Shown here in pieces: positions 1 to 12,374 of a stretch of 64,000 nt of DNA. Position 1 is the first letter of the stretch, and each line of letters opens with the position of its first letter. Made by a program: the position numbers and the translations under genes. The notes below the pieces were generated by a model. That model worked only from the letters and a program-made list of their open reading frames with translations, was not told the DNA's origin and searched no databases. Location of the stretch: NCBI GenBank assembly GCA_964291625.2, contig OZ220089.1:1952001-2016000 (forward strand). Direction: 5' to 3'. The stretch is from Candidatus Latescibacterota bacterium (GTDB taxonomy: Bacteria; Latescibacterota; UBA2968; UBA8231).

Positions 1-1520
<1,520 letters not shown>

Positions 1521-1532
1521 TTACGAGAGTCC

Positions 1533-1559
1533 GTAGCACTCCCGCTACGAGAGTGCTAC
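1533..1559. promoter_or_regulatory. CIRCE operator (HrcA site)
   Basis: GTAGCACTC-N9-GAGTGCTAC is a perfect inverted repeat nearly identical to the consensus TTAGCACTC-N9-GAGTGCTAA. It lies about 50 bp upstream of groEL. Confidence 0.95.
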
Positions 1560-1854
1560 ACGCCTTTTCTCAGTCCGAGAAGTTACCGCGAGAGTGTGGG
1601 GAGCGCAAGCGCCGCTTGGCAGGCGCACTCCCCCCCGGGGCGAGCCCGCCCGGCACTCCCCAACCCCCGGCTCTTCCGGAAGCCCCCGGGCGGCCACGGC
1701 CGGACCGGGCGCCCGGACCCGCCAACGGCCGCATGGCCGCGCGGGCCCCGGCGCGGCGGGCACCCCGGTTGCCGGGAAATCCCGGACCGGCTATCTTCCA
1801 CGGCTGCGAAAATCCCCCATTCCTTCAACGAAAACAACAACTTAGCGGACCCTC

Positions 1855-3225
1855 ATGATCGACCTGCTCGACATCGCCCGCACCGAGGCCGCCGGCGGCG
1901 ACCTCCTCGGCCTCCTCGAGGGGCTCTTCGAGTCCAGCGAGGTACGCCCCGAAGGCTATCCCGACGCCGTCATCTGGCAGGGCGGCAACCACGATGCCGG
2001 GGTGGCCCCCGTGGCCCACTCCCTCACCGACGCCTATGCCCTCCTCGGCACCCTCTCCGCCCTCGACGTCCTTGGACTGCCCTGCTACGGCGTCCCCATG
2101 TGGGCCCAGTACCGCCACGACCTCGATCTGGCCCCGCTCGCCTGGTTCGGGAACATGCCGTGCACGTCGATCAAGTGGTCCACCGCCGGCGACGCCTACG
2201 TCAACGACGGCCGCGGCGGCCGCGTGGTGGTGAAGGGCAAGTCCGGCAACGCCCAGCTGCGGACCCAGGCCGGGGTCTACTGCAACGTGCGCCCCTACGG
2301 GACGATCACCGTGGTGCGCTGCATGCCCTGCCTGCCGTACTCCCAGGACCGGGCCCGTTTCGCCGTCGACGGAGGGACCGGCCACATCCACTCCGAGATG
2401 AACACGCCGGGGATCCAGATGGCCTACGCCAACCGGCGGTTCCTGCAGATGGTGCACGAGACCGGCCGCCTGGGGCGCGTCGCCTTCAAGCCGACCCAGG
2501 CCATGGAGGACGGCATCAACGCCGGCCTGTTGTCGTGGCTGCTGCAGGACACGCGCTTCGAGGTGGGCCGCAAGTACGCCGTCGACGGCTACGTGGAGCA
2601 CCGCGAGCACGTGGACCGCATCATCTCCCTCCTGCCGCCGGACTTCAAGTCCGGCATGGAGAGCTGGGGTGGCCGCATCGAGCAGCACATCGCCGACACC
2701 AGCTACGGCCTGCTGCTCTGGGACCTCATCAACAAGGAGGAGGTCATCGTCCTGGCCACCGACCTCGACGGCGACCGCCTCACCGACCTGCTCGCCGATG
2801 TCTCCGACCCGCTGCGCCACTTCGGGCAGCTCGTCGTCGACCACGTCGGCTCCGGGGCGAGGATGGACGACATCTGGGGCCGCATGGGCTACACCACCGG
2901 CAACGGCCGCGACATGACCTCGGTCATGCACCGCATGGCCGGCCCCCCCATCCACGAGCAGACCCTGGGTTCCGCCGACGCCATGCTCCAGAGGCTCCTC
3001 GACGGCGACGAGTCCATGGGCGGCACCAAGCGGCCCTACGACCCGCGCATCCACTTCGTCCTCATCCGCGACGCCTATCTCGACGCGAACCCCGGCCACA
3101 CCGAGCTGCGCCAGTGGCTCGACCGCTCCCTGGACGCCTTCGACGAGGTCTACGGGGGCACCCGGCCCGGGTTCCTCGAGGGCTACCGCAGCCTGAAAGA
3201 GGCGATCGCCCCCTGGGGGTCCTGA
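1855..3225 (+). CDS. Divergent isocitrate/isopropylmalate dehydrogenase-family protein
   Basis: 456 aa ORF with strong GC3 bias. Motifs in the correct order: [58 protein letters not shown]. Confidence 0.65.
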
Positions 3226-3226
3226 C

Positions 3227-3703
3227 GTGGCCGACTCCGGACGCCTGACCCACCTCGACGAGTCGGGCCGCGTGAAGATGGTGGACATCTCCGGAAAGCC
3301 GGTGAGCGAGCGCCTGGCCCGCGCCGGCGGCCGCATCCGCATGCGCCCGGCCACGGTGCGCCGCATCTCGGAACAGACCGTGGCCAAGGGCAACGTCCTG
3401 GAGACGGCGCGCATCGCCGGGATCCAGGCCGCCAAGAGGACGGCGGACCTCATCCCCCTCTGCCACTCCCTCAACCTGACCGCCGTCGAGGTGGAGTTCA
3501 CCCTCGGCGAGGACCGCGTCGAGGTGGAGACCGCGGCGAGGCTGGCGGACCGCACCGGCGTGGAGATGGAGGCCCTCACGGCCGCCGCCGTGGCCCTGCT
3601 GACGATCTACGACATGTGCAAGGGCGTCGACCGCGAGATGGTGATCGACGAAGTGCGCCTGCTGGAGAAGCGGGGCGGCGCCGGCGGCGACTACGCGCGC
3701 TGA
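3227..3703 (+). CDS. moaC: Cyclic pyranopterin monophosphate synthase MoaC
   Basis: [31 protein letters not shown] and IYDMCK signatures. Confidence 0.97.
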
Positions 3704-3719
3704 CCGCGGTCCCCGGACG

Positions 3720-4646
3720 TCACCCCAGGAGGCCGGCCAGCTTGAGTAGCACCGCCTTCTGGCTGTGCATGCGGTTCTCGGCCTGGTCGAAGACCACCGA
3801 GCGCGGGTCCTCCACCAGCTCCGCCTCGATCTCGTAGCCCCGGTGGGCGGGCAGGCAGTGCATGATCAGCGGGTCGAGGCCGCGGAGCAGGTCGCGGCTC
3901 AACTGATAGGGCCGCAGGGCCCGCAGGCGCCGCTCCTTCTCGGCGGCGAAGGCGGGATCGTCGAAGTACTCCATGTCGAGCCAGGTGTCGGTGTAGACCA
4001 CGTCGCAGCCGGCCACTCCTTCCGCCGGATCGTCGGTCTCCACGTAGCGGCCGGAGGCCCGCGCCTCGGCCAGCAGCCCGTCGTCGACGGCGGCCTCGTT
4101 CACCTCGGGGGCGACGACGGTGACGTGCATGCCGGTCTTGAGGCCGGCGGCGATGAGCGAGTTCGTGACGTTGTTGCGGACACCGATGTAGGTGAGGCGC
4201 ACCCCCTCCAGACGGCCGAGCTTCTCCTGCACCGTCTGCAGGTCGCACAAGGCCTGCAGCGGATGGTAGCGGTCGCAGCAGCCGTTCATCACCGGCGCCT
4301 CGGCGGAGGCCGCCGCCGTGACCACGTCGGCGTGGTCCAGGAAGCGCACCAGGAGGAAGTCGAAGTAGCGCCCCAGGACGCGGATCTCGTCGGCCAGGTG
4401 GGCGAGACCGAAGTTGGTGGCCCGCCAGTCGAGGTAGACCGAGTGTCCGCCGAGCTGCGCCATGCCGACCTCGCCGGAGCAGCGAGTCCGCGTCGAGGTC
4501 TTCTGGAACAGCAGCGCCAGGGAGCGGCCCTTCAGAGCCTCGATGAAGGCCCCGGGGTCCGCCTTCAGGTGCCGGCCGGCGTCGACGACCTGGAGGATCT
4601 CCGCGGCGCTCCAGTCCTTGAGCGTCACCAGGTGGCCGGGGTTCAT
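3720..4646 (-). CDS. argF: Ornithine carbamoyltransferase
   Basis: FQKTSTRTR, HPLQ, MHCLPAHRG and QAENR motifs. Start placed at MNPGHL (4646), overlapping the upstream stop. Confidence 0.88.
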   Translation of the reverse strand: MNPGHLVTLKDWSAAEILQVVDAGRHLKADPGAFIEALKGRSLALLFQKTSTRTRCSGEVGMAQLGGHSVYLDWRATNFGLAHLADEIRVLGRYFDFLLVRFLDHADVVTAAASAEAPVMNGCCDRYHPLQALCDLQTVQEKLGRLEGVRLTYIGVRNNVTNSLIAAGLKTGMHVTVVAPEVNEAAVDDGLLAEARASGRYVETDDPAEGVAGCDVVYTDTWLDMEYFDDPAFAAEKERRLRALRPYQLSRDLLRGLDPLIMHCLPAHRGYEIEAELVEDPRSVVFDQAENRMHSQKAVLLKLAGLLG

Positions 4647-5620
4647 GGCAACATCTCCTCCACCGCGGCCAGCAGGCGCGACCGCACCGCCCCCGCCTGT
4701 CCCTCGATGCGGCAGCCCGAGGCCTGGGGGTGGCCGCCGCCGCCGAAGCGGCGGGCCACGGCGCTCACGTCCATGTCGTCGTCGCGGGACCTCAGGCTGA
4801 CGCGGAACCGGCCCGGCTCCTCCTCCCGGAGCAGGGCGGCCGCCTCCACCCCCCTCACCATCAGGCCGTAGTTGACGATCGCCTCGGGGTCGCCCAGGGC
4901 CAGGTCCCGCCGGCTCAGCCCCAGGAGGGCGACGCGGTCCCCGCAGTGCAGCTCGAGGGAGTCGATGGCCCGCCCGATCAGCTTGACCGAGCCCAGGGTG
5001 GCGTTGCTGTAGAGGCCGTCGGCGACGCGGTCGAGCCGCGCCCCCCGGCGCCGGAGGTCGGCGCCCACCTCCATCGACGTGGGCGTGGTCAGGGAATAGC
5101 GGAAGCAGCAGGTGTCGAAGAGGAGGCCCGCGGCGAGCAGCTCCGACAGGCTCCGGTCGAGCTCCAGGTCCATGTGCACGGCCAGGTGGTAGAGCATCTC
5201 GCAGGTGGAGGAGACGGCGTCGGAGACCAGGTTCGCCGACCCGAAGCGCTGGTTGTCCGCATGGTGGTCGATGTTGAGCACCGATGCGCCGTCGGCCAGG
5301 CACTCCGCCACCGGGCCGGTGCGCGCTAGGCTGGAGCTGTCGAGGACGATGGCCCGCTGGTGGCCGCCGCCCGCGGCGCCGGCCTCGACGATGCCGCCGG
5401 TCCCCGGGAGAAAGGCGTAGGCGTCGCCGGGCCTCTCCTCGAGGACCGCCGTCGAGGCCTTTCCGAGCTGGCCCAGCAGGCCCTCCATGGCCAGGACCGC
5501 GCCGATGGCGTCGCCGTCGGCGTTGACGTGGGAGGTGACCAGGAAGCCGTCGCCTCCGCGCAGGAAGTCGGCGGCGGCATCGAAATCGGAGACCGGGATC
5601 TCTGTGGGCCGGGCGGGCAT
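4643..5620 (-). CDS. nrnA: DHH/DHHA1 phosphoesterase (NrnA-like oligoribonuclease/pAp phosphatase)
   Basis: HVNADGDA, IDHH, DT..F and GGGGHPQASG motifs. Confidence 0.88.
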   Translation of the reverse strand: MPARPTEIPVSDFDAAADFLRGGDGFLVTSHVNADGDAIGAVLAMEGLLGQLGKASTAVLEERPGDAYAFLPGTGGIVEAGAAGGGHQRAIVLDSSSLARTGPVAECLADGASVLNIDHHADNQRFGSANLVSDAVSSTCEMLYHLAVHMDLELDRSLSELLAAGLLFDTCCFRYSLTTPTSMEVGADLRRRGARLDRVADGLYSNATLGSVKLIGRAIDSLELHCGDRVALLGLSRRDLALGDPEAIVNYGLMVRGVEAAALLREEEPGRFRVSLRSRDDDMDVSAVARRFGGGGHPQASGCRIEGQAGAVRSRLLAAVEEMLP

Positions 5621-5627
5621 GGTCGGC

Positions 5628-6389
5628 TCAGCGGCGCAGGACGAAGTGGACGCGGTCGCAGAGGTCGGAGCCCGGCCGCAGGCTGAAGCCGTCGAGAAGC
5701 TCGACGAGGTCGAAGGGGCTGGCGTCGACGGCGGCGGCCAGCTCGCCGCACTCGTAGATGCGCTGCACGTGGGTCTCCCGGACCCGGGATCCGTCCTCGA
5801 AGCAGATGTCGAAGTCGTTGTGCTGGAGGCGTTCGTCGGAGGAGTAGTGGCTGTGCCGGCGAAAGCTGAAGCCGCGGCCGCGCTCGGAGCTGCGCACGTC
5901 CCCGAAGTGACGCACGGAGTTCTGCTCGGTGCAGATGTCGAAGATAAAGACCGCGCCCTCCGGCAGCACGCCGTGCACCTGGGTCAGGGCCTCCCCCACC
6001 TCTTCGAGGGTCAGCAGGTAGTTCAGGCTGTCGTAGAGGCACACGGCGGCCCCGTGCTCCCCGACCCCCGACAGGTCCCGCAGGTCGCGGACACCGAAGC
6101 GCAGGTCCCCCTGCTGACGGGCGGCCTTCTCGCGGGCCACCCGGACCATCTCCTCGGAGGCATCGTACCCGGTGAGGCGGTAACCCGCCGCCGCCAGGGC
6201 GAAGGAGGCGTTGCCGGTGCCGCAGGCCAGGTCCAGAAGACGGCCGGGCTCGCACTCGTGGCGCCGCAGCAGGGAGGCGACATAGTTGGCCCAGGCCGGG
6301 TAGTCGACGTGGCGCATCACGAAGTCGTAGATCGAGGCCAGGCCCTCGTACGGCCGGCGCTCGAGGACGGCGGGCTCAGGGCTCGTCAT
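5628..6389 (-). CDS. Class I SAM-dependent methyltransferase
   Basis: LLDLACGTG motif I; DSLNYL. Confidence 0.9.
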   Translation of the reverse strand: MTSPEPAVLERRPYEGLASIYDFVMRHVDYPAWANYVASLLRRHECEPGRLLDLACGTGNASFALAAAGYRLTGYDASEEMVRVAREKAARQQGDLRFGVRDLRDLSGVGEHGAAVCLYDSLNYLLTLEEVGEALTQVHGVLPEGAVFIFDICTEQNSVRHFGDVRSSERGRGFSFRRHSHYSSDERLQHNDFDICFEDGSRVRETHVQRIYECGELAAAVDASPFDLVELLDGFSLRPGSDLCDRVHFVLRR

Positions 6390-6669
6390 CGAAGGACAGA
6401 ACCTCCGCCGGCAGGGCCTCGCGCCGCAGCTCGCGTACGTAGTGGGAGCGCTGCGAGCGCGCCACCGGCCGCAGCGGCAGGTCGAGGACCTCCACCTCCA
6501 GGCGGTGGCCGCCGGCCTCGACCTCGAGGATCTCGCCGACGCGCACCGCCCGGGAGCCGCGGGCCGGGGTCCCGCCGATGCGCACCCGGCCCTCGTCGCA
6601 GGACCGCCGGGCCCGCGAGCGGGACTTGAAGAGACCCGCGTTCTTCAGGAAGGCGTCGAGGCGCACCAC
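6376..6669 (-). CDS. S4-domain RNA-binding protein (Hsp15/YabO-like)
   Basis: VRLDAFL...SRSRARRSCDEGRVRIGG S4 pattern. Confidence 0.88.
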   Translation of the reverse strand: MVRLDAFLKNAGLFKSRSRARRSCDEGRVRIGGTPARGSRAVRVGEILEVEAGGHRLEVEVLDLPLRPVARSQRSHYVRELRREALPAEVLSFDDEP

Positions 6670-6673
6670 GGGC

Positions 6674-8026
6674 TCAGCGGTCTTCCCCGGGTTCCCGTGC
6701 CGCGGCGGAGTCCTGCCGAGCAGCCGAATCGGCGGCCGCGGCGCCCAGGGGGTCCCAGAGCCACTCGTCGTCGAGGCGCTCCTCCACGTGGATCTCCTGC
6801 CGGTACTCGGCGATGACCTCCTCCATGCGGTGGGCGACCCGCTCTTCGCGGACCAGGGCCTCCAGGGTCGCGAAGTCGTCGTTGATCTTGAAGATGTGGC
6901 CGCCCGTATCGAGGATGACCGGCTCGCTCACGCCGCCGAGACCGAGGTGCCCGATGAAAGGGTCCAGGACGTCGGGAATGGCGGCGCGGTCGAGGATCTG
7001 CCACAGCCCGCCCTGGCGGGCCGAGTGCGGGTCCTCGGAGTGGTCCCGAGCCAGCTGGGCGAAGTCCTCCCCCGCCAGGGCCCGGCGGCGCAGATCCTCG
7101 AGCCGGTCCCGCACCCGCTCCCGGTCGGCCTCGGTGGTCCGCGCCCGCACCAGGATGTGGCTGACGCACATCTCCCCCTCGCGCTTTTCGTGCAGCAGGA
7201 TCAGGTGGAAGCCGAAGCGCGTCAGCACCGGCGCGCTCGTCTCGCCGGGACGCAGGTCGATGGCGGCGCGCTCGAAGTCGGCCGTGAGGGTGCCCGGCGA
7301 GAAGCACCCCAGGTCGCCCCCCGCCGCGGCGGTGCCGGGATCCTCCGACAGCCGGCGGGCGACCTCGGCGAACTCCTCTCCCGAGTCGAGGCGCCCCTGG
7401 ATACGGTCGATCCGCTCCCGGGCGCGCAGACGCACCGAGTCGGCGGGGACGATCTTGAGGTTGATCTGGCTCACCGAGACCTTCGGCGGCGGCGAATCGA
7501 GCCAGGCCTCGCGGAAGGCTTCCACGTCCCGCCGGGTGAGGTACTGCTGGTAGGCCAGCTGCGAGACCATCTGGTCGTAGAGGAGGCGGTTGCGGATGCG
7601 CTTGCGCTCCCGCGCCTTCAACTGGCGTTCGGTCATGCCCGAGTTCTCCAGAAGCTGCTCCAGCTCGCCCGGCCCCATGGAGGCGCGCATGCGTCCGAAC
7701 TCGGCGTTGAGGTATTCCTCGACCTGCACCGGATCGACCTCGATGCTGTCCTTCTGCGCCTTCTTCACCACCACCAGCTCGGCCACCATGTCCTCGAGGA
7801 CGCGGCGGCGCTCCTCGGCCACATCCTCGAGTTCGAGGAAGGCCGGGTTGCGCCCTTGCTGCTGCAGCTGGAGCAGGGTCCGCAACTCCAACTCCGACCA
7901 CAACACCACCTGGTCGTCGACGACGGCGACGATGCGGTCCAGGAGCTCCGGCTCCGCCTGCCCCCGGGAGGGGAAGAGGGCGCAACAGGCCAGGAGGCCG
8001 AGGAACCAGCGCGCCCAGGCCTTCAT
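6674..8026 (-). CDS. surA: SurA-like periplasmic chaperone/parvulin PPIase
   Basis: Signal peptide; LDRIVAVVDDQVVLWSEL SurA N-domain; two parvulin domains (FAEVARRLSEDP..GGDLG, FGFHLI; FAQLARDHSED). Confidence 0.85.
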   Translation of the reverse strand: MKAWARWFLGLLACCALFPSRGQAEPELLDRIVAVVDDQVVLWSELELRTLLQLQQQGRNPAFLELEDVAEERRRVLEDMVAELVVVKKAQKDSIEVDPVQVEEYLNAEFGRMRASMGPGELEQLLENSGMTERQLKARERKRIRNRLLYDQMVSQLAYQQYLTRRDVEAFREAWLDSPPPKVSVSQINLKIVPADSVRLRARERIDRIQGRLDSGEEFAEVARRLSEDPGTAAAGGDLGCFSPGTLTADFERAAIDLRPGETSAPVLTRFGFHLILLHEKREGEMCVSHILVRARTTEADRERVRDRLEDLRRRALAGEDFAQLARDHSEDPHSARQGGLWQILDRAAIPDVLDPFIGHLGLGGVSEPVILDTGGHIFKINDDFATLEALVREERVAHRMEEVIAEYRQEIHVEERLDDEWLWDPLGAAAADSAARQDSAAAREPGEDR

Positions 8027-8853
8027 CGGCCCCTCAACATGGTTTCGTCGATCTCCCAGCTGTGCTCCTCCCGCAGGCTGTCGACGAGGGCGTGAATGCG
8101 CCCCCGGTACCCCTCCCGGACCAGGGCCTCCTCGATGTTCCGCCGCACCCCCGCCTCGTCGAGGGAGCGCAGGCTGCCGGCCCCCTGCCGGTCCCGCAGG
8201 CGCGCGATGTGCCAGCCGCGGCCGGTGGCGACGACGTCCGAGACCTCCCCCGGCTTCAGGTCGGCGCAGGCCTCCCACAGCTCCGGCCTCTCCCGGGCGG
8301 AGAAGTAGCCGAGGTCGCCCGAGGACGCCGCCGTTGCCTCGTCGAGGGAGACCTCGGCCACGCGGCCGTCGAAGCCGCCATCGCTGAGCAGCTCCTGCCG
8401 CAGGCTCTCGGCGGCGCGCCGCGAGTCGAGCAGGATGTGCTGCGCCCGGATCTCGTCCTCCTGGCGCGTGAACTCCCCGGGGTTGCGGTCGTAGTAGCCC
8501 TGCACGTCCCCCGGGTCGATCTCGATCGACCGGCTCTCGAACTCGCTGTCGAGGTAGGCGGCCACGATGACGTCCTCGCGGGACTGCTCGACGAGACGCT
8601 GGATCCTCGGCCTCTCGTGGACCTGCCTCTCCAGGGCCTCCTGGTAGAGCAGCTGCCGGCGGACCCAGTCCCCCACGAACCGCCGCCGCTGCTCCAGCCC
8701 CGCGTCGCCGGGGACCTGGGCCTCCAGCTCGAGCCGGGTGAGGGACGACGCGCCCACGCGGGCCACCTCCTCCTCCCGTTCGGGCGAGGAGCAGCCGGCG
8801 AGGGAGGCGGCGAGGAGGGCCCCCGCCGGGCGGCTACACCAGTTGTTCCACAA
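8023..8853 (-). CDS. PpiC-type peptidyl-prolyl isomerase lipoprotein
   Basis: Lipobox LAGC; IRAQHILL, SGDLGYF and GWHI parvulin motifs. Confidence 0.85.
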   Translation of the reverse strand: MWNNWCSRPAGALLAASLAGCSSPEREEEVARVGASSLTRLELEAQVPGDAGLEQRRRFVGDWVRRQLLYQEALERQVHERPRIQRLVEQSREDVIVAAYLDSEFESRSIEIDPGDVQGYYDRNPGEFTRQEDEIRAQHILLDSRRAAESLRQELLSDGGFDGRVAEVSLDEATAASSGDLGYFSARERPELWEACADLKPGEVSDVVATGRGWHIARLRDRQGAGSLRSLDEAGVRRNIEEALVREGYRGRIHALVDSLREEHSWEIDETMLRGR

Positions 8854-11800
8854 GGTCGCGGGCCTTCGCCAGCCGCTCCTGCTCGTCCGCGGCGCGCAGG
8901 AAGGTCTCGATGGTCAGCCCCTTGCCGACCTTGAACTCCAGCTCGGACGACGACTTCTCCACCAGCCGCTGCAGGTCGGCGGGGGGGACCTGCCGGGTCT
9001 CGGGGAAGCTCATCCGGAACCGGGACTTCTCCAGCTGCACCGACTCCAGCCCGAGCTGCCGCGCCATGACCTTTATCTCCATGATGTGGAGCAGGGACGC
9101 CGCCTGCCACGGCAGGCGTCCGAAGCGGTCCTCCAGCTCCTCGCGGACGGTCAGGAGGTCGACGATGCGCCCCGCCCCGGCCAGGCGCTGGTAGAACTCC
9201 ATCTTGAGGTCGGTGTCGGGCACGTAGTCGTCGGGCAGGTAGGCGGTGACGGCGATCTTGATGTCGGGATCGGCGGCGTGCTCCACCCGCTCCCCCTTCA
9301 GCTCCCGCACCGCTTCGTCGAGGAGCCGCGTGTAGAGGTCGAAGCCGATGGCGGTGATGAACCCGTGCTGCTGCGCCCCCAGGAGGTTGCCGGCGCCGCG
9401 GATCTCCATGTCGCGCATGGCGATGTTGAAGCCCGAGCCGAGGTCGGCGAACTCCTCCACGGCGCGCAGGCGCAGGCGCGACTTGCGGGTCAGCCGCTTG
9501 CCCTTGGGCACCAGGAGGTAGGCGAAGGCGCGCTCCTTCGAGCGTCCTACGCGGCCCCGGATCTGGTAGAGCTGGGAGAGGCCCAGCATGTCGGCGCGGT
9601 TGACCAGGATCGTGTTCACGGAAGGGATGTCGATGCCGGACTCTATGATCATGGTACTGACGAGGCAGTCGTACTTCCGTTCCAGGAAGTCGAGCATGAT
9701 CTTCTCGAGCTGGCGGGCCGGCATCTGGCCGTGGGCCACGGCGAAGCGCACCTGGGGCAGCAACTCGGACAGGTACTGCGCCAGGCTGTGGATCGACTGC
9801 ACGCGGTTGTGGACGAAGTAGACCTGCCCTCCACGTTCGACCTCGCGCTCGATGGCCGCGGAGATACGCCCCTCGTCGAAGGTGATGATCTCGGTGTGGA
9901 TCGGCAGCCGGTCCTGGGGCGGCGTGTTGATCACCGACATGTCGCGGGCCCCCATGAGAGACAGGTGCAGGGTCCGCGGGATCGGCGTCGCCGTGAGGGT
10001 GATGACGTCCACCTGGCGCTTGAGCTGCTTCAGGCGCTCCTTGTGGCGCACGCCGAAGCGCTGCTCCTCGTCGACCACCAGGAGCCCCAGGTCGCGGAAG
10101 CGGATGTCGCGGCCCAGGAGGCGGTGGGTGCCGATGAGGATATCCACCTTGCCCGCCTTCACGTCCTCCACCACCTGCTTCTGCTCCCGCGCCGTGCGAA
10201 ACCGGGAGAGGACCTCCACCCTCACCGGGAAGGGCTCCATGCGCTCGGAGAACACCTGCAGGTGCTGCTGCGCCAGGATCGTCGTCGGCACCAGCACCGC
10301 CACCTGCTTGTGGTCGCACACGGCCTTGAAGGCGGCGCGCACCGCCACCTCCGTCTTGCCGTAACCCACGTCGCCGCAGACCAGGCGGTCCATGGGGTGG
10401 GGCGCCTCCATATCGCGCTTCACCTCCTCCACGGTGCGCAGTTGGTCCGGCGTCTCGGTGAAGGGGAAGGAGGCCTCCAGCTCGCGCAGCATCGGCGAGT
10501 CCCCGGAGAACCCGACCCCCGGCAGGGACTTGCGCTCGGCGTAGAGCTGGATCAGCTCGGCCGCGGCCTTGAAGATCTCCTCCCGGGTGCGCTCCTTGAG
10601 CTTCTCCCAGGCCCCCGAGCCGAGCTTGCTGAGCAGCGGCGGAGCCCCGTCGGCGCCGGTGTAGCGGCGCAGCCGGTCGAGTTGCTCCACGGGCACGAAG
10701 AGCTTGTCCCGGCCCTGGTACGTGACCTCCAGGCAGTCGTGGTCGCGGTTGGTGATCGTCAGCCGCCGCAGCCCGAGGTAGCGGCCGATGCCGTGGTCCA
10801 CGTGGACCACGAAGTCGCCAACACCCAGGGCGTCGAAGGAGGAGATCGGCTTGGCCGCCTTGAAGCGGCGGTAGCGGTGGCGGCTCTTGTTGCGCGAGAA
10901 GATCTCGTGGTCGTTGAGAATCGCCACCTTCGCCTCGGGGTAGACGAAGCCGCGGCTGAGGTTGCCGAGGCCGAAGACGACGTCGTCGCCCCAATCGGCG
11001 AAGATCTCCTGCAGGCGGCTCGACTGGCCCCGGGTCTCGCTGAGGATGTGGACCGCGTAGTTCTCGCGGCCGAGGCGGGCGACCTCCTCGCGGAGGACGT
11101 TCAGGTCGCCCTGGACCAGGCGCGGCTCGGCGGCGCCGAAGCGCACCGCCTCCCCGCCCTCGCCCACGGGAGCGGTCCGGACCCGGGGATGGCGCCCCAC
11201 CTGCCGGTGGAGCCAGGCGGTCTCGCGCACCAGGCGCTCCGGCGGCAGATGGGTGCCGCGGCCGGCGTGGCGCTCGTGATCGCGCCGCGAAGGGGCCTGC
11301 TGCTTCTCCACGTCGGCGTCGATGTCGTCGGTCTCGTCGGCCCAGACCACGGCATCGGCGGGGAGGTACTCGAAGAGGCCGTCGCCCGGGCCGTAGAGCA
11401 CGCCCATCACCGCCTCGATGCCCTCCAAGGTGGCGGTGCCGAGCTCGAGCTGGTCCTTGACCTCGATGAGGTCGACGCCGGTCTCCTTCTCGGCGCTCTC
11501 GAGATTGGGCACGAAATCGTCGAAGAAGGGAGAGTGCAGGACGACCTCGCACACCGGCAGCACGACCGCCTCCGGGCAGGCCTCGAGGGAGCGCTGGGTG
11601 CCCACGTCGAAGGTGCGGATCGACTCGATCTCGTCGTCGAAGAACTCCAGTCGCAGCGGGTGCTCGACGCCGGGGGGATAGATGTCGAGGATGCCGCCGC
11701 GGGAGCTGAACTGGCCGAGGCCGTCGACGATGGGCACGCGCTCGAAGCCGGCGTCGACGAGATGGGAGACCAGGTCGTCGAGGGGCTGGACCTGGCCGCA

Positions 11801-12244
11801 GGCCAGGCGCAGGGTGGCGCGCTCCAGGACGGCGGCCGGGATCAGCGGCGACAGGAGGGCCGCCGCGGGGGCGACGACGATCGTCGGGGAGCCGTCCGCC
11901 AGCCTCGCCGCCGCCTCGATGCGCAGGGCCGAGACCTCCACGTCGGGGGAGCGCCCGTCGTAGAGATCGATGTCCCACATGGGGAAGTAGCGGACCACCT
12001 CCTCACCGGCCACCGCCGTCAGGTCGTCGCGCCAGGCCTCGGCCCGGCTCTCGTCGGCGGCCACCACCAGGATCGACCGCTCCAGCTCGCGCTGGGCCGC
12101 CGTCAGCAGGAAGGCGCCGAGGCTCGCCGGCAGTCCGTGGACCCGCACCTCCTGCCCGCCGGCGAGCCGGTCGAGGACCTGCCGCACGGGGGCGGACTGG
12201 GCGGTCGTTCGGGCGACGGGATCGAGGGCGGGCGCAACGGCCAT
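8834..12244 (-). CDS. mfd: Transcription-repair coupling factor
   Basis: RGGILDIY, CarD-like VVHVDHGIGRY, GDVGYGKTEVA, DEEQRFGV, TATPIPRTL, QIRGRVGRS and TRCF tail. Start taken at MAVAP (12244); exact start uncertain. Confidence 0.97.
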   Translation of the reverse strand: MAVAPALDPVARTTAQSAPVRQVLDRLAGGQEVRVHGLPASLGAFLLTAAQRELERSILVVAADESRAEAWRDDLTAVAGEEVVRYFPMWDIDLYDGRSPDVEVSALRIEAAARLADGSPTIVVAPAAALLSPLIPAAVLERATLRLACGQVQPLDDLVSHLVDAGFERVPIVDGLGQFSSRGGILDIYPPGVEHPLRLEFFDDEIESIRTFDVGTQRSLEACPEAVVLPVCEVVLHSPFFDDFVPNLESAEKETGVDLIEVKDQLELGTATLEGIEAVMGVLYGPGDGLFEYLPADAVVWADETDDIDADVEKQQAPSRRDHERHAGRGTHLPPERLVRETAWLHRQVGRHPRVRTAPVGEGGEAVRFGAAEPRLVQGDLNVLREEVARLGRENYAVHILSETRGQSSRLQEIFADWGDDVVFGLGNLSRGFVYPEAKVAILNDHEIFSRNKSRHRYRRFKAAKPISSFDALGVGDFVVHVDHGIGRYLGLRRLTITNRDHDCLEVTYQGRDKLFVPVEQLDRLRRYTGADGAPPLLSKLGSGAWEKLKERTREEIFKAAAELIQLYAERKSLPGVGFSGDSPMLRELEASFPFTETPDQLRTVEEVKRDMEAPHPMDRLVCGDVGYGKTEVAVRAAFKAVCDHKQVAVLVPTTILAQQHLQVFSERMEPFPVRVEVLSRFRTAREQKQVVEDVKAGKVDILIGTHRLLGRDIRFRDLGLLVVDEEQRFGVRHKERLKQLKRQVDVITLTATPIPRTLHLSLMGARDMSVINTPPQDRLPIHTEIITFDEGRISAAIEREVERGGQVYFVHNRVQSIHSLAQYLSELLPQVRFAVAHGQMPARQLEKIMLDFLERKYDCLVSTMIIESGIDIPSVNTILVNRADMLGLSQLYQIRGRVGRSKERAFAYLLVPKGKRLTRKSRLRLRAVEEFADLGSGFNIAMRDMEIRGAGNLLGAQQHGFITAIGFDLYTRLLDEAVRELKGERVEHAADPDIKIAVTAYLPDDYVPDTDLKMEFYQRLAGAGRIVDLLTVREELEDRFGRLPWQAASLLHIMEIKVMARQLGLESVQLEKSRFRMSFPETRQVPPADLQRLVEKSSSELEFKVGKGLTIETFLRAADEQERLAKARDLVEQLV

Positions 12245-12344
12245 GTCGACGGCAAAGGCCCTTGGAAAGCCTGTATGTAGCTGGGAATGAAGACGTTGCA
12301 GCGGCTTGGAGAGCTGCTTGCCGCGGCGGCGGCAGGAAAGGCGT

Positions 12345-12374
12345 AAAATAACCGGGCCCCGCAAAGACTGTCAA
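12345..12374 (-). promoter_or_regulatory. Putative sigma-70 promoter for mfd
   Basis: Minus strand TTGACA-N18-TATTTT in an AT-richer intergenic patch. Confidence 0.5.

Follow-up and report, generated by a model that had tools for sequence, protein, structure and literature searches.

Isocitrate dehydrogenase (IDH) is a textbook enzyme of central metabolism. Three IDH subfamilies are described in the relevant passages of PMC4360740 and PMC8287583. The described enzymes that come closest to the gene considered here are the type II IDHs (TIGR00127; human IDH1 and IDH2, the Desulfotalea, Sinorhizobium and Thermotoga enzymes, and M. tuberculosis ICDH-1), the type I NADP-dependent IDHs of the E. 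coli Icd type (TIGR00183/NF005425), the monomeric type III IDHs (PF03971), and the related 3-isopropylmalate, homoisocitrate and tartrate dehydrogenases (PF00180, LeuB-like). Within the type II class, the part of PMC4360740 that deals with cofactor choice describes Asp together with Met (or Leu) for NAD-specific enzymes at positions where NADP-specific enzymes have Arg and His, and a reversal of cofactor specificity when these residues are swapped. Against this background we examined a 64,000-nucleotide (nt) stretch of a Candidatus Latescibacterota genome (contig OZ220089.1; hereafter the window). Near its start lies a gene for a protein of 456 amino acids (aa), hereafter the focal gene, which a prior examination of the letters alone (the sequence-only reading) had taken for a divergent IDH-like enzyme coupled to moaC.

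The predicted fold, the active-site residues and the position of the gene in the slot of the canonical IDH gene, icd, all agree with a divergent IDH-like enzyme. We put at roughly 85% the probability that the focal protein is a functional IDH, one of a class within the beta-decarboxylating dehydrogenase superfamily that is cryptic at the sequence level and had so far escaped recognition, with substrate, chemistry and cofactor inferred. In its fold, its site and its genomic role the protein resembles a homodimeric IDH, type II being the nearest, and we rate the family as a cryptic fourth class of the enzyme. That it serves as the IDH of its genome is argued from the replacement of canonical icd in place in two phyla, together with mutual exclusion between the focal gene and canonical IDHs, and we regard this genomic context as the decisive evidence for an IDH role.

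Reading frame, family and sequence-model searches

The focal gene runs from an ATG at position 1855 to a TGA at 3223-3225, and a single base (3226) separates this stop codon from the GTG start of moaC at 3227, exactly as the sequence-only reading had described. The frame 1855-3225(+) is a real gene, because its product is conserved from residue 1 both among database proteins and at genomic loci. At E ≤ 0.001 the product has over 2000 counterparts in the database; the 120 best of these align over the full length, at 79-98% identity, and nearly all are 454-461 residues long (one has 484). Eighty genomic loci, all from uncultured organisms, encode the protein at 71-98% identity, with the match spanning the whole protein from residue 1 at 76 of them and cut by a contig end at the other four. 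The window is ~70% G+C and contains long open reading frames (ORFs) in many frames. Two of these, at 3-3248(+) (1081 aa) and 1825-3579(-) (584 aa), overlap the focal gene and are rich in Arg, Gly and Pro. Both are artefacts of the 70% G+C content, and the minus-strand ORF recurs in 61 loci because the underlying DNA is conserved.

The focal gene is carried in no fewer than six phyla; among its carriers are SAR202 and further Chloroflexota, SAR116, a SUP05-clade Thioglobus, Myxococcota, Binatia, and bins labelled Gemmatimonadota or Latescibacterota. All named members of the family bear the label hypothetical. When 1.84 billion cluster representatives were searched exhaustively with phmmer, 209 proteins came up at E ≤ 0.001. 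Among the 150 matches listed, most are fragments of the focal family, and eight are more distant relatives at 27-58% identity, full-length or nearly so, those with a name again being hypothetical. We found no description of the family in the open-access PMC and bioRxiv literature, and one may exist elsewhere; the paper on a Dehalococcoides IDH concerns, in the sections relevant here, a gene already annotated as IDH (PMC4720418).

Searches with sequence models gave little. Pfam and NCBIfam scans of the focal protein returned no family at E ≤ 10, and a Pfam scan of the eight divergent relatives found no meaningful domain. A phmmer search against Protein Data Bank (PDB) sequences produced two chance matches only (E 0.24 and 1.1), and the ESM Atlas search gave no usable match for the focal protein. 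A hidden Markov model (HMM) of the focal family, run against the PDB, gave a single non-significant match (E 1.6), to homoisocitrate dehydrogenase over the L-R...N-V-R-P stretch, and hhalign, comparing the family with an Iso_dh alignment of 14 sequences, gave a probability of 13.7% over 27 columns, covering S-x-N...R...R-P. By sequence-defined membership (PF00180 Iso_dh, or the NCBIfam IDH equivalogs TIGR00127 and TIGR00183) the focal protein is not a member. The suggestion that it might form a new subfamily was thus well placed: PF00180 and all NCBIfam IDH models miss it.

Predicted fold, active site and dimer

We built an AlphaFold2 model of the focal protein from a family alignment of 25 sequences, reaching down to 27% identity, and obtained a predicted local distance difference test score (pLDDT) of 89.8 and a predicted template modelling score (pTM) of 0.89. 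In a Foldseek search of the PDB, the top matches to this model were exclusively IDHs and 3-isopropylmalate dehydrogenases (IPMDHs), at E 2.1e-12, probability 1.00, template modelling (TM) scores of 0.5-0.6 and 10-14% identity. VIA-align against chain 8vhb_C aligned model residues 47-456 with chain residues 4-409 (Z 27.6; root-mean-square deviation 3.2 Å over 316 residues), and the 50 VIA rows listed are all IDHs, nearly all of the type II homodimeric class. The predicted structure is the beta-decarboxylating dehydrogenase (IDH/IPMDH) two-domain fold over model residues 47-456, which is the Iso_dh relationship that the sequence-only reading had staked its case on. The first ~46 residues, modelled with helices at residues 4-13 and 17-22 (pLDDT 92-95), have no counterpart in type II IDH structures.

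The best structural matches of the model are the type II IDHs, with Z 24-27.6 and 304-323 residues aligned between model residues 45-456 and nearly the whole chain. The two also share a motif order, K..T, S-x-N-x3-R...R-x-P, R-x6-Y, K-x-T, D, D-G-D-x2-(S/T)-D and E-x3-G-(S/T). However, identity in these structural alignments is only 13-16%, no HMM match links the focal protein to the class, and the focal protein has the extra 46-residue N-terminal part. Spacings differ as well. Compared with the type II IDH encoded at an alphaproteobacterial locus that also carries the focal gene (L067:7439-8641), the Arg-to-Arg distance within the first motif is 10 vs 9, Y-to-K is 50 vs 72, K-to-D is 69 vs 40, and the distance from D to the G of the cofactor loop is 61 vs 31; the R-to-Y spacing of 7 is equal. 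Type I enzymes share the superfamily fold, the catalytic residues named by the sequence-only reading and the R-x9-R spacing, which is found in type I and IPMDH rows, but no type I sequence model matches the focal protein. LeuB-like enzymes share the fold (Foldseek E ~1e-10), the R..R..R-Y..K..D..D-x3-D framework and a cofactor loop of the G-S-A-(P)-D type with Asp, but rank below the IDHs in the VIA list. The monomeric IDHs offer a parallel as an IDH class divergent enough to form its own family; unlike the focal protein, they are ~740 residues long and monomeric.

All ten active-site residues that had been proposed as counterparts of those in E. coli Icd are present, in order: S130, N132, R136, R146, R155, Y162, K212, D281, D307 and D311. 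Nine of the ten fall among the 25 invariant columns of the family alignment, which include N132, R136, R146, R155, Y162, K212, D281, D303, D307, T310 and D311. Because only ~0.55 would be expected there by chance (hypergeometric p 9e-12), the proposed motifs are not a chance resemblance. The tenth position, S130, is Ser or Thr in 24 of the 25 rows and Ala in one. The order of the Tyr/Lys pair, the three Arg and the three metal-binding Asp is canonical, and the local spacings match those of the IDH rows. The type II rows of the comparison alignment have K-N-T at the place matching K212-P-T214, and by eye the D303-D311 motif aligns with N-Y-D-G-D-x2-S-D of type II IDHs. We also considered whether the protein could be a non-catalytic relic, or a regulatory protein that has kept the IDH fold, as might be supposed of a protein that no sequence model recognises. 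With 71-98% identity across phyla, every catalytic residue invariant, and a gene that is intact in the 80 loci (76 whole, 4 contig-cut) and replaces an essential gene of central metabolism, we find this extremely improbable.

The fold and catalytic residues are common to the whole superfamily, and would equally suit a beta-decarboxylating dehydrogenase acting on another 2-hydroxy acid (homoisocitrate, 3-isopropylmalate, tartrate or D-malate), in carriers that have simply lost IDH. The sole PDB match of the family HMM, homoisocitrate dehydrogenase, would fit such an enzyme, as would the retention of another IDH-like gene in some carriers. The Ser/Asn pair argues otherwise. These two residues, which we take to be the binders of the isocitrate gamma-carboxylate, are kept in the focal family, and the S-x-N pair is present in the IDH rows of the Iso_dh comparison alignment and absent from its LeuB, tartrate-dehydrogenase and LEU3-like rows, in keeping with the isocitrate-like substrate that had been read from this pair. 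A different substrate is also hard to square with VIA rows that are IDHs in 50 of 50 cases, with a gene lying exactly in the icd slot in two phyla, and with a genome that keeps citrate synthase, aconitase and 2-oxoglutarate dehydrogenase and has a separate LeuB. We consider it improbable.

The nucleotide-binding loops of the focal protein depart from those of type II IDHs, whose G-D-E/G-type first loop and H-G-T-V-T-R-H cofactor loop are both remodelled in it. Its first, N-terminal loop reads G-G-N-H-D, and the canonical His of the cofactor loop is Leu. In the main clade the cofactor loop contains G-S-A-D-A-M, and in the most divergent members G-T-A-P-D or G-T-A-P. The earlier statement that the nucleotide pocket looks changed is therefore right as to remodelling, but the pocket does not appear to be lost: E368 is nearly invariant, G372 is invariant, and the divergent members keep G-T-A-P(-D). 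D375, in a loop with no basic residues, recalls the NAD-specific type II IDHs, and this by-eye analogy weakly suggests that NAD+ is the more likely cofactor of the focal enzyme.

The same remodelling, of the N-terminal nucleotide loop and the cofactor-loop His, would also suit an isocitrate enzyme with altered chemistry or an altered redox partner, be it non-decarboxylating, biased towards carboxylation, or not using NAD(P)+. The 46-residue extension without counterpart fits this idea too, and the unusual spread of the gene across phyla suggests a property absent from canonical IDHs. Yet no variation is seen in the Tyr/Lys pair or in any of the metal ligands that the standard reaction needs; the cofactor loop retains E368 and G372 and, in divergent members, takes a canonical-looking G-T-A-P-D form; and the focal gene directly replaces standard NADP-type icd genes. 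An enzyme of altered chemistry is in our view quite unlikely, and we continue to favour an IDH that carries out the standard reaction.

Prediction of a homodimer gave a score of 0.78, compared with 0.00 for the best of 3 controls, with at least 93% of contacts agreeing between runs and a partner pLDDT of at least 90. In a benchmark of this approach, the score mark was reached by 20 of 30 proteins whose solved structures pair copies of one chain, vs 1 of 23 solved as single chains. The focal protein is probably a homodimer by this prediction, as the type II IDHs are, although the pass may merely reflect its likeness to solved IDH dimers. The predicted interface holds residues 160-162, 215-219, 280-282, 307-308 and 311-312 and adjoins Y162, K212, D281, D307 and D311, a position as expected for a shared active site.

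We propose a mechanism on the basis of family chemistry. In canonical IDHs, the metal-binding Asp that matches D281 is supplied by the partner subunit. The active sites of a focal homodimer would likewise lie at the subunit interface, where isocitrate would be held by R136, R146 and R155, and its gamma-carboxylate by the S130/N132 pair. D307 and D311, together with D281 of the partner subunit, would bind a divalent metal. Acid-base catalysis by Y162 and K212 would then support hydride transfer to NAD(P)+, followed by decarboxylation of oxalosuccinate to 2-oxoglutarate.

Genomic position of the focal gene in two phyla

In the window and in three related loci (L004, L005 and L007), tblastn places groEL on the minus strand, then the focal gene followed by moaC, and then three minus-strand genes. 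In five relatives lacking the focal gene (L136-L140), chosen for contiguous assemblies, the same search finds groEL(-) and then type I icd followed by moaC in 5/5, with the downstream trio in 4/5 (L137-L140). Because groEL and moaC flank both type I icd and the focal gene, the focal gene occupies the icd slot, which it shares with type I in the window's family. This comparison also disposes of the proposed coupling to moaC as a functional link. A link of the focal gene to molybdenum cofactor synthesis was ruled out, since only 4 of the 80 loci have moaC 3′ of the focal gene, each of the 4 belonging to the window's own family, and since in relatives it comes after canonical icd. With moaC behind type I icd in 5/5 focal-less relatives, its adjacency is inherited synteny, taken over from the displaced icd.

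A sample of 121 genomes from the window's phylum has the focal gene in 8, all from one family and from three genera (3 of 37 genera sampled). Within that family, we compared the 8 carriers with 20 listed members lacking the gene (28 genomes; 21 further focal-less members in the sample were left out). Type I NADP-IDH (TIGR00183 over cut-off) is found in 12 of the 20 focal-less genomes and 0 of the 8 carriers. Monomeric IDH (PF03971), which alternates with type I among these relatives, is found in 6 other focal-less genomes of the 20 and again in 0 of the 8 carriers.

A similar exclusion is seen in an order of Chloroflexota, where the focal gene is present in 14 of 46 sampled genomes. Type II IDH (TIGR00127) is found in 31 of the 32 non-carriers (30 over cut-off, plus one fragment at a contig end) and in 0 of the 14 carriers. 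TIGR00183 is over cut-off in 0 of the 46 genomes, and PF03971 is matched in 0 of the 16 tested (the 14 carriers, G169 and G158). At 15 Chloroflexota loci, an aconitase gene (901 aa; PF00330 7.6e-166) lies directly upstream of the focal gene on the same strand, with a median gap of 43 nt, and tblastn confirmed this arrangement on 4 of the 15. In non-carrier relatives, type II icd lies behind acnA, again at this distance, in 6/6, these six having been picked for long contigs from the 31 with a type II match. The slot downstream of acnA is thus one that the focal gene and type II icd share.

We extended the comparison to 23 further distinct carriers, picked from the 80 loci for assembly contiguity (one duplicate of G034 was left out), and found type I in 0/23, monomeric IDH in 0/23 and type II in 2/23 (G137 and G143). 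Over all 42 distinct carriers tested, type I and monomeric IDHs never occur together with the focal gene, and type II does so in the same 2.

The window's genome, 95% complete in 2 contigs, has aconitase, four citrate-synthase matches and 2-oxoglutarate dehydrogenase E1 (1076 bits vs a cut-off of 770). The sequence-only reading had asked for a canonical icd to be sought in this genome; IDH profile scans found none, and PF03971 gave no match. A PF00180 scan of the genome missed the focal gene and returned two others, LeuB (NF002898, 517.6 bits) and a LEU3_arch/homoisocitrate-dehydrogenase-like paralogue (L001, G000:C1:661213-662268), which passes no NCBIfam cut-off. As a candidate for the real IDH this paralogue was ruled out, since it has no S-x-N and similar genes are present in relatives having canonical icd. 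Relatives have genes like it whether or not they carry the focal gene.

Together, these data support at least two displacements, rather than dozens, in which the focal gene would have taken the place of canonical icd: of type I in the window's family and of type II in the Chloroflexota order. Several points weigh against taking it for an IDH. Sequence methods fail to place the focal protein in the IDH family, so that homology is not established by sequence alone; only the S-x-N...R...R stretch is program-aligned (by hhalign), the other motif equivalences having been set by eye from order and spacing. The changed G-D-G-I-G-type N-terminal loop and cofactor-loop His make cofactor use uncertain. 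Exclusion is imperfect, in that two of the 42 carriers also hold type II IDH. In one of the two, represented by alphaproteobacterial L067, a canonical type II IDH gene (7439-8641; 686 bits to TIGR00127) lies 73 nt downstream of the focal gene (6001-7365) and shares its strand; the pair may reflect different cofactor use or a displacement caught midway. A screen with NF006529 found, in 6 of 31 carriers, an IDH-like gene of ~335 aa that has S-x-N and scores 401-418 bits (cut-off 510). Where this small gene or a type II IDH is present, the focal gene need not be the sole IDH, and different cofactor preferences could explain their co-occurrence. Three genomes lacking the focal gene, G043 and G081 (86% complete) in the window's family and G169 in the Chloroflexota order, had no IDH of any type that we could find, and absences do occur in such bins. 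Finally, related genomes are not independent, and the replacements may be as few as two events.

Neighbours, distribution and expression

The coordinates of the focal gene, its motifs and the flanking genes used as synteny anchors are collected in Table 1.

Table 1. Features of the focal gene and its surroundings (window coordinates)
Feature	Coordinates	Strand	Basis and remarks
Focal gene, probable divergent isocitrate-dehydrogenase-fold protein	1855..3225	+	ORF, conservation, AlphaFold2 model, fold match, icd slot; stop codon included
N-terminal extension, ~46 residues, two predicted helices	1855..1992	+	Structural alignments begin at model residues 45-50
S130-x-N132-x3-R136-x9-R146, putative substrate motif (Ser/Asn pair and two Arg)	2242..2292	+	Conservation; hhalign to Iso_dh; HMM to PDB homoisocitrate dehydrogenase
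R155-x6-Y162, third Arg and putative catalytic Tyr	2317..2340	+	Both invariant; 160-162 in predicted interface
K212-P-T214, putative catalytic Lys, K-x-T as in type II IDH	2488..2496	+	K212 invariant; T214 at least 90% conserved; 215-219 in predicted interface
D281, putative metal-binding Asp	2695..2697	+	Invariant; 280-282 in predicted interface
D303-L-D305-G-D307-x2-T310-D311, putative metal-binding Asp motif	2761..2787	+	D303, D307, T310 and D311 invariant
E368-Q-T-L-G372-S-A-D375-A-M, remodelled cofactor loop	2956..2985	+	G372 invariant; E368 conserved to at least 90%
groEL, truncated at the window start; synteny anchor upstream, divergently oriented	3..1484	-	ORF translation; upstream of icd or focal gene in all 9 compared sequences
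moaC, cyclic pyranopterin monophosphate synthase; synteny anchor	3227..3703	+	Pfam MoaC 2.9e-55; NF006870 218.6 bits vs cut-off 162
Downstream synteny trio	3759..6389	-	Carbamoyltransferase-like 3759-4646, DHH/nrnA-like 4643-5620, methyltransferase-like 5628-6389; names read from translations

We looked for a universally conserved neighbour of the focal gene and found none; neighbours vary by lineage, one group of Chloroflexota having aconitase there, Gammaproteobacteria proA/proB-like genes, and SAR116 genes of the LOG family and for an aminotransferase. At 14 gammaproteobacterial loci the focal gene is preceded on its own strand, at a median distance of 93 nt, by a conserved ORF of ~89 aa that Pfam does not match (for example L056:5398-5667). 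The small IDH-like genes found with NF006529 are L113-L118 (for example L115:1501-2517, minus strand); within the window's family this gene, judged by its 996-nt length class, occurs in carriers only, in 4 of the 8. A truncated small IDH-like ORF (L120, G143:C4:389640-391888; profile positions 5-277, 320 bits) lies directly upstream of the type II IDH in a deltaproteobacterial carrier.

Around the focal gene itself, an Rfam search of 1400-3800 gave only a chance miRNA-like match at E 0.16, with no Moco riboswitch, and a promoter and terminator scan of 1400-3900 found none. The intergenic region between groEL and the focal gene holds a perfect inverted repeat, TAGCACTC-N9-GAGTGCTA, at 1534-1558, 50-74 nt upstream of the groEL(-) start. 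It resembles the CIRCE/HrcA operator, and no groES gene lies between the repeat and groEL. Further downstream, the products of 6674-12364(-) look, from their translations, like SurA/PpiC-type chaperones and the transcription-repair coupling factor Mfd, an ordinary housekeeping context.

The window's sequence occurs mostly in sponge metagenomes. Contigs from one sponge metatranscriptome match it with 0-3 mismatches over 1763-2357, 2769-2913, 3048-3256 and 3233-3614, and the contig at 3048-3256 spans the junction of the focal gene and moaC. These matches weakly suggest that the focal gene is transcribed, given that DNA carry-over is possible in RNA libraries and that a contig need not correspond to a single transcript; 1500-1762 and 2388-2609 are uncovered by RNA-library contigs, and such gaps prove nothing.

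A search by six peptide patterns among 185,579 species genomes gave 241 matched stretches that encode a relative of the focal protein. In a quick maximum-likelihood tree of 81 main-clade proteins, branching is shallow and the phyla are interleaved. The tree needs 6 changes for Pseudomonadota and 4 for Chloroflexota, and, where its branches are well supported, no fewer than 2 are required in each of Chloroflexota, Myxococcota and Gemmatimonadota; two rows (L036 and L038) sit on very long branches, probably as the wrong ORF variant, and were left uncorrected. The interleaved tree, the patchy occurrence among genera and the broad spread across species therefore point to horizontal transfer of the focal gene between phyla.

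A bolder account can be built on this distribution, in which a fourth structural class of IDH, unseen by any present sequence model, has swept by horizontal transfer through at least six phyla in the ocean and in sponges, repeatedly evicting icd from its operon slot, and in which the driver is a new property conferred by the remodelled nucleotide pocket and the N-terminal extension. We hold this extended account to be unlikely, if worth stating. Were it true, the new property might be, for example, a different cofactor or redox partner, a different metal economy, or a different mode of regulation.

As a functional IDH of a cryptic class, the focal gene could explain the apparent absence of IDH from many uncultured marine and sponge-associated bacteria. 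In genomes that have the focal gene alone, annotation based on Pfam and NCBIfam would leave the IDH step without a candidate. The family would also be an exceptionally clear case of in-place gene displacement by a highly divergent homologue, seen twice and against two different incumbents.

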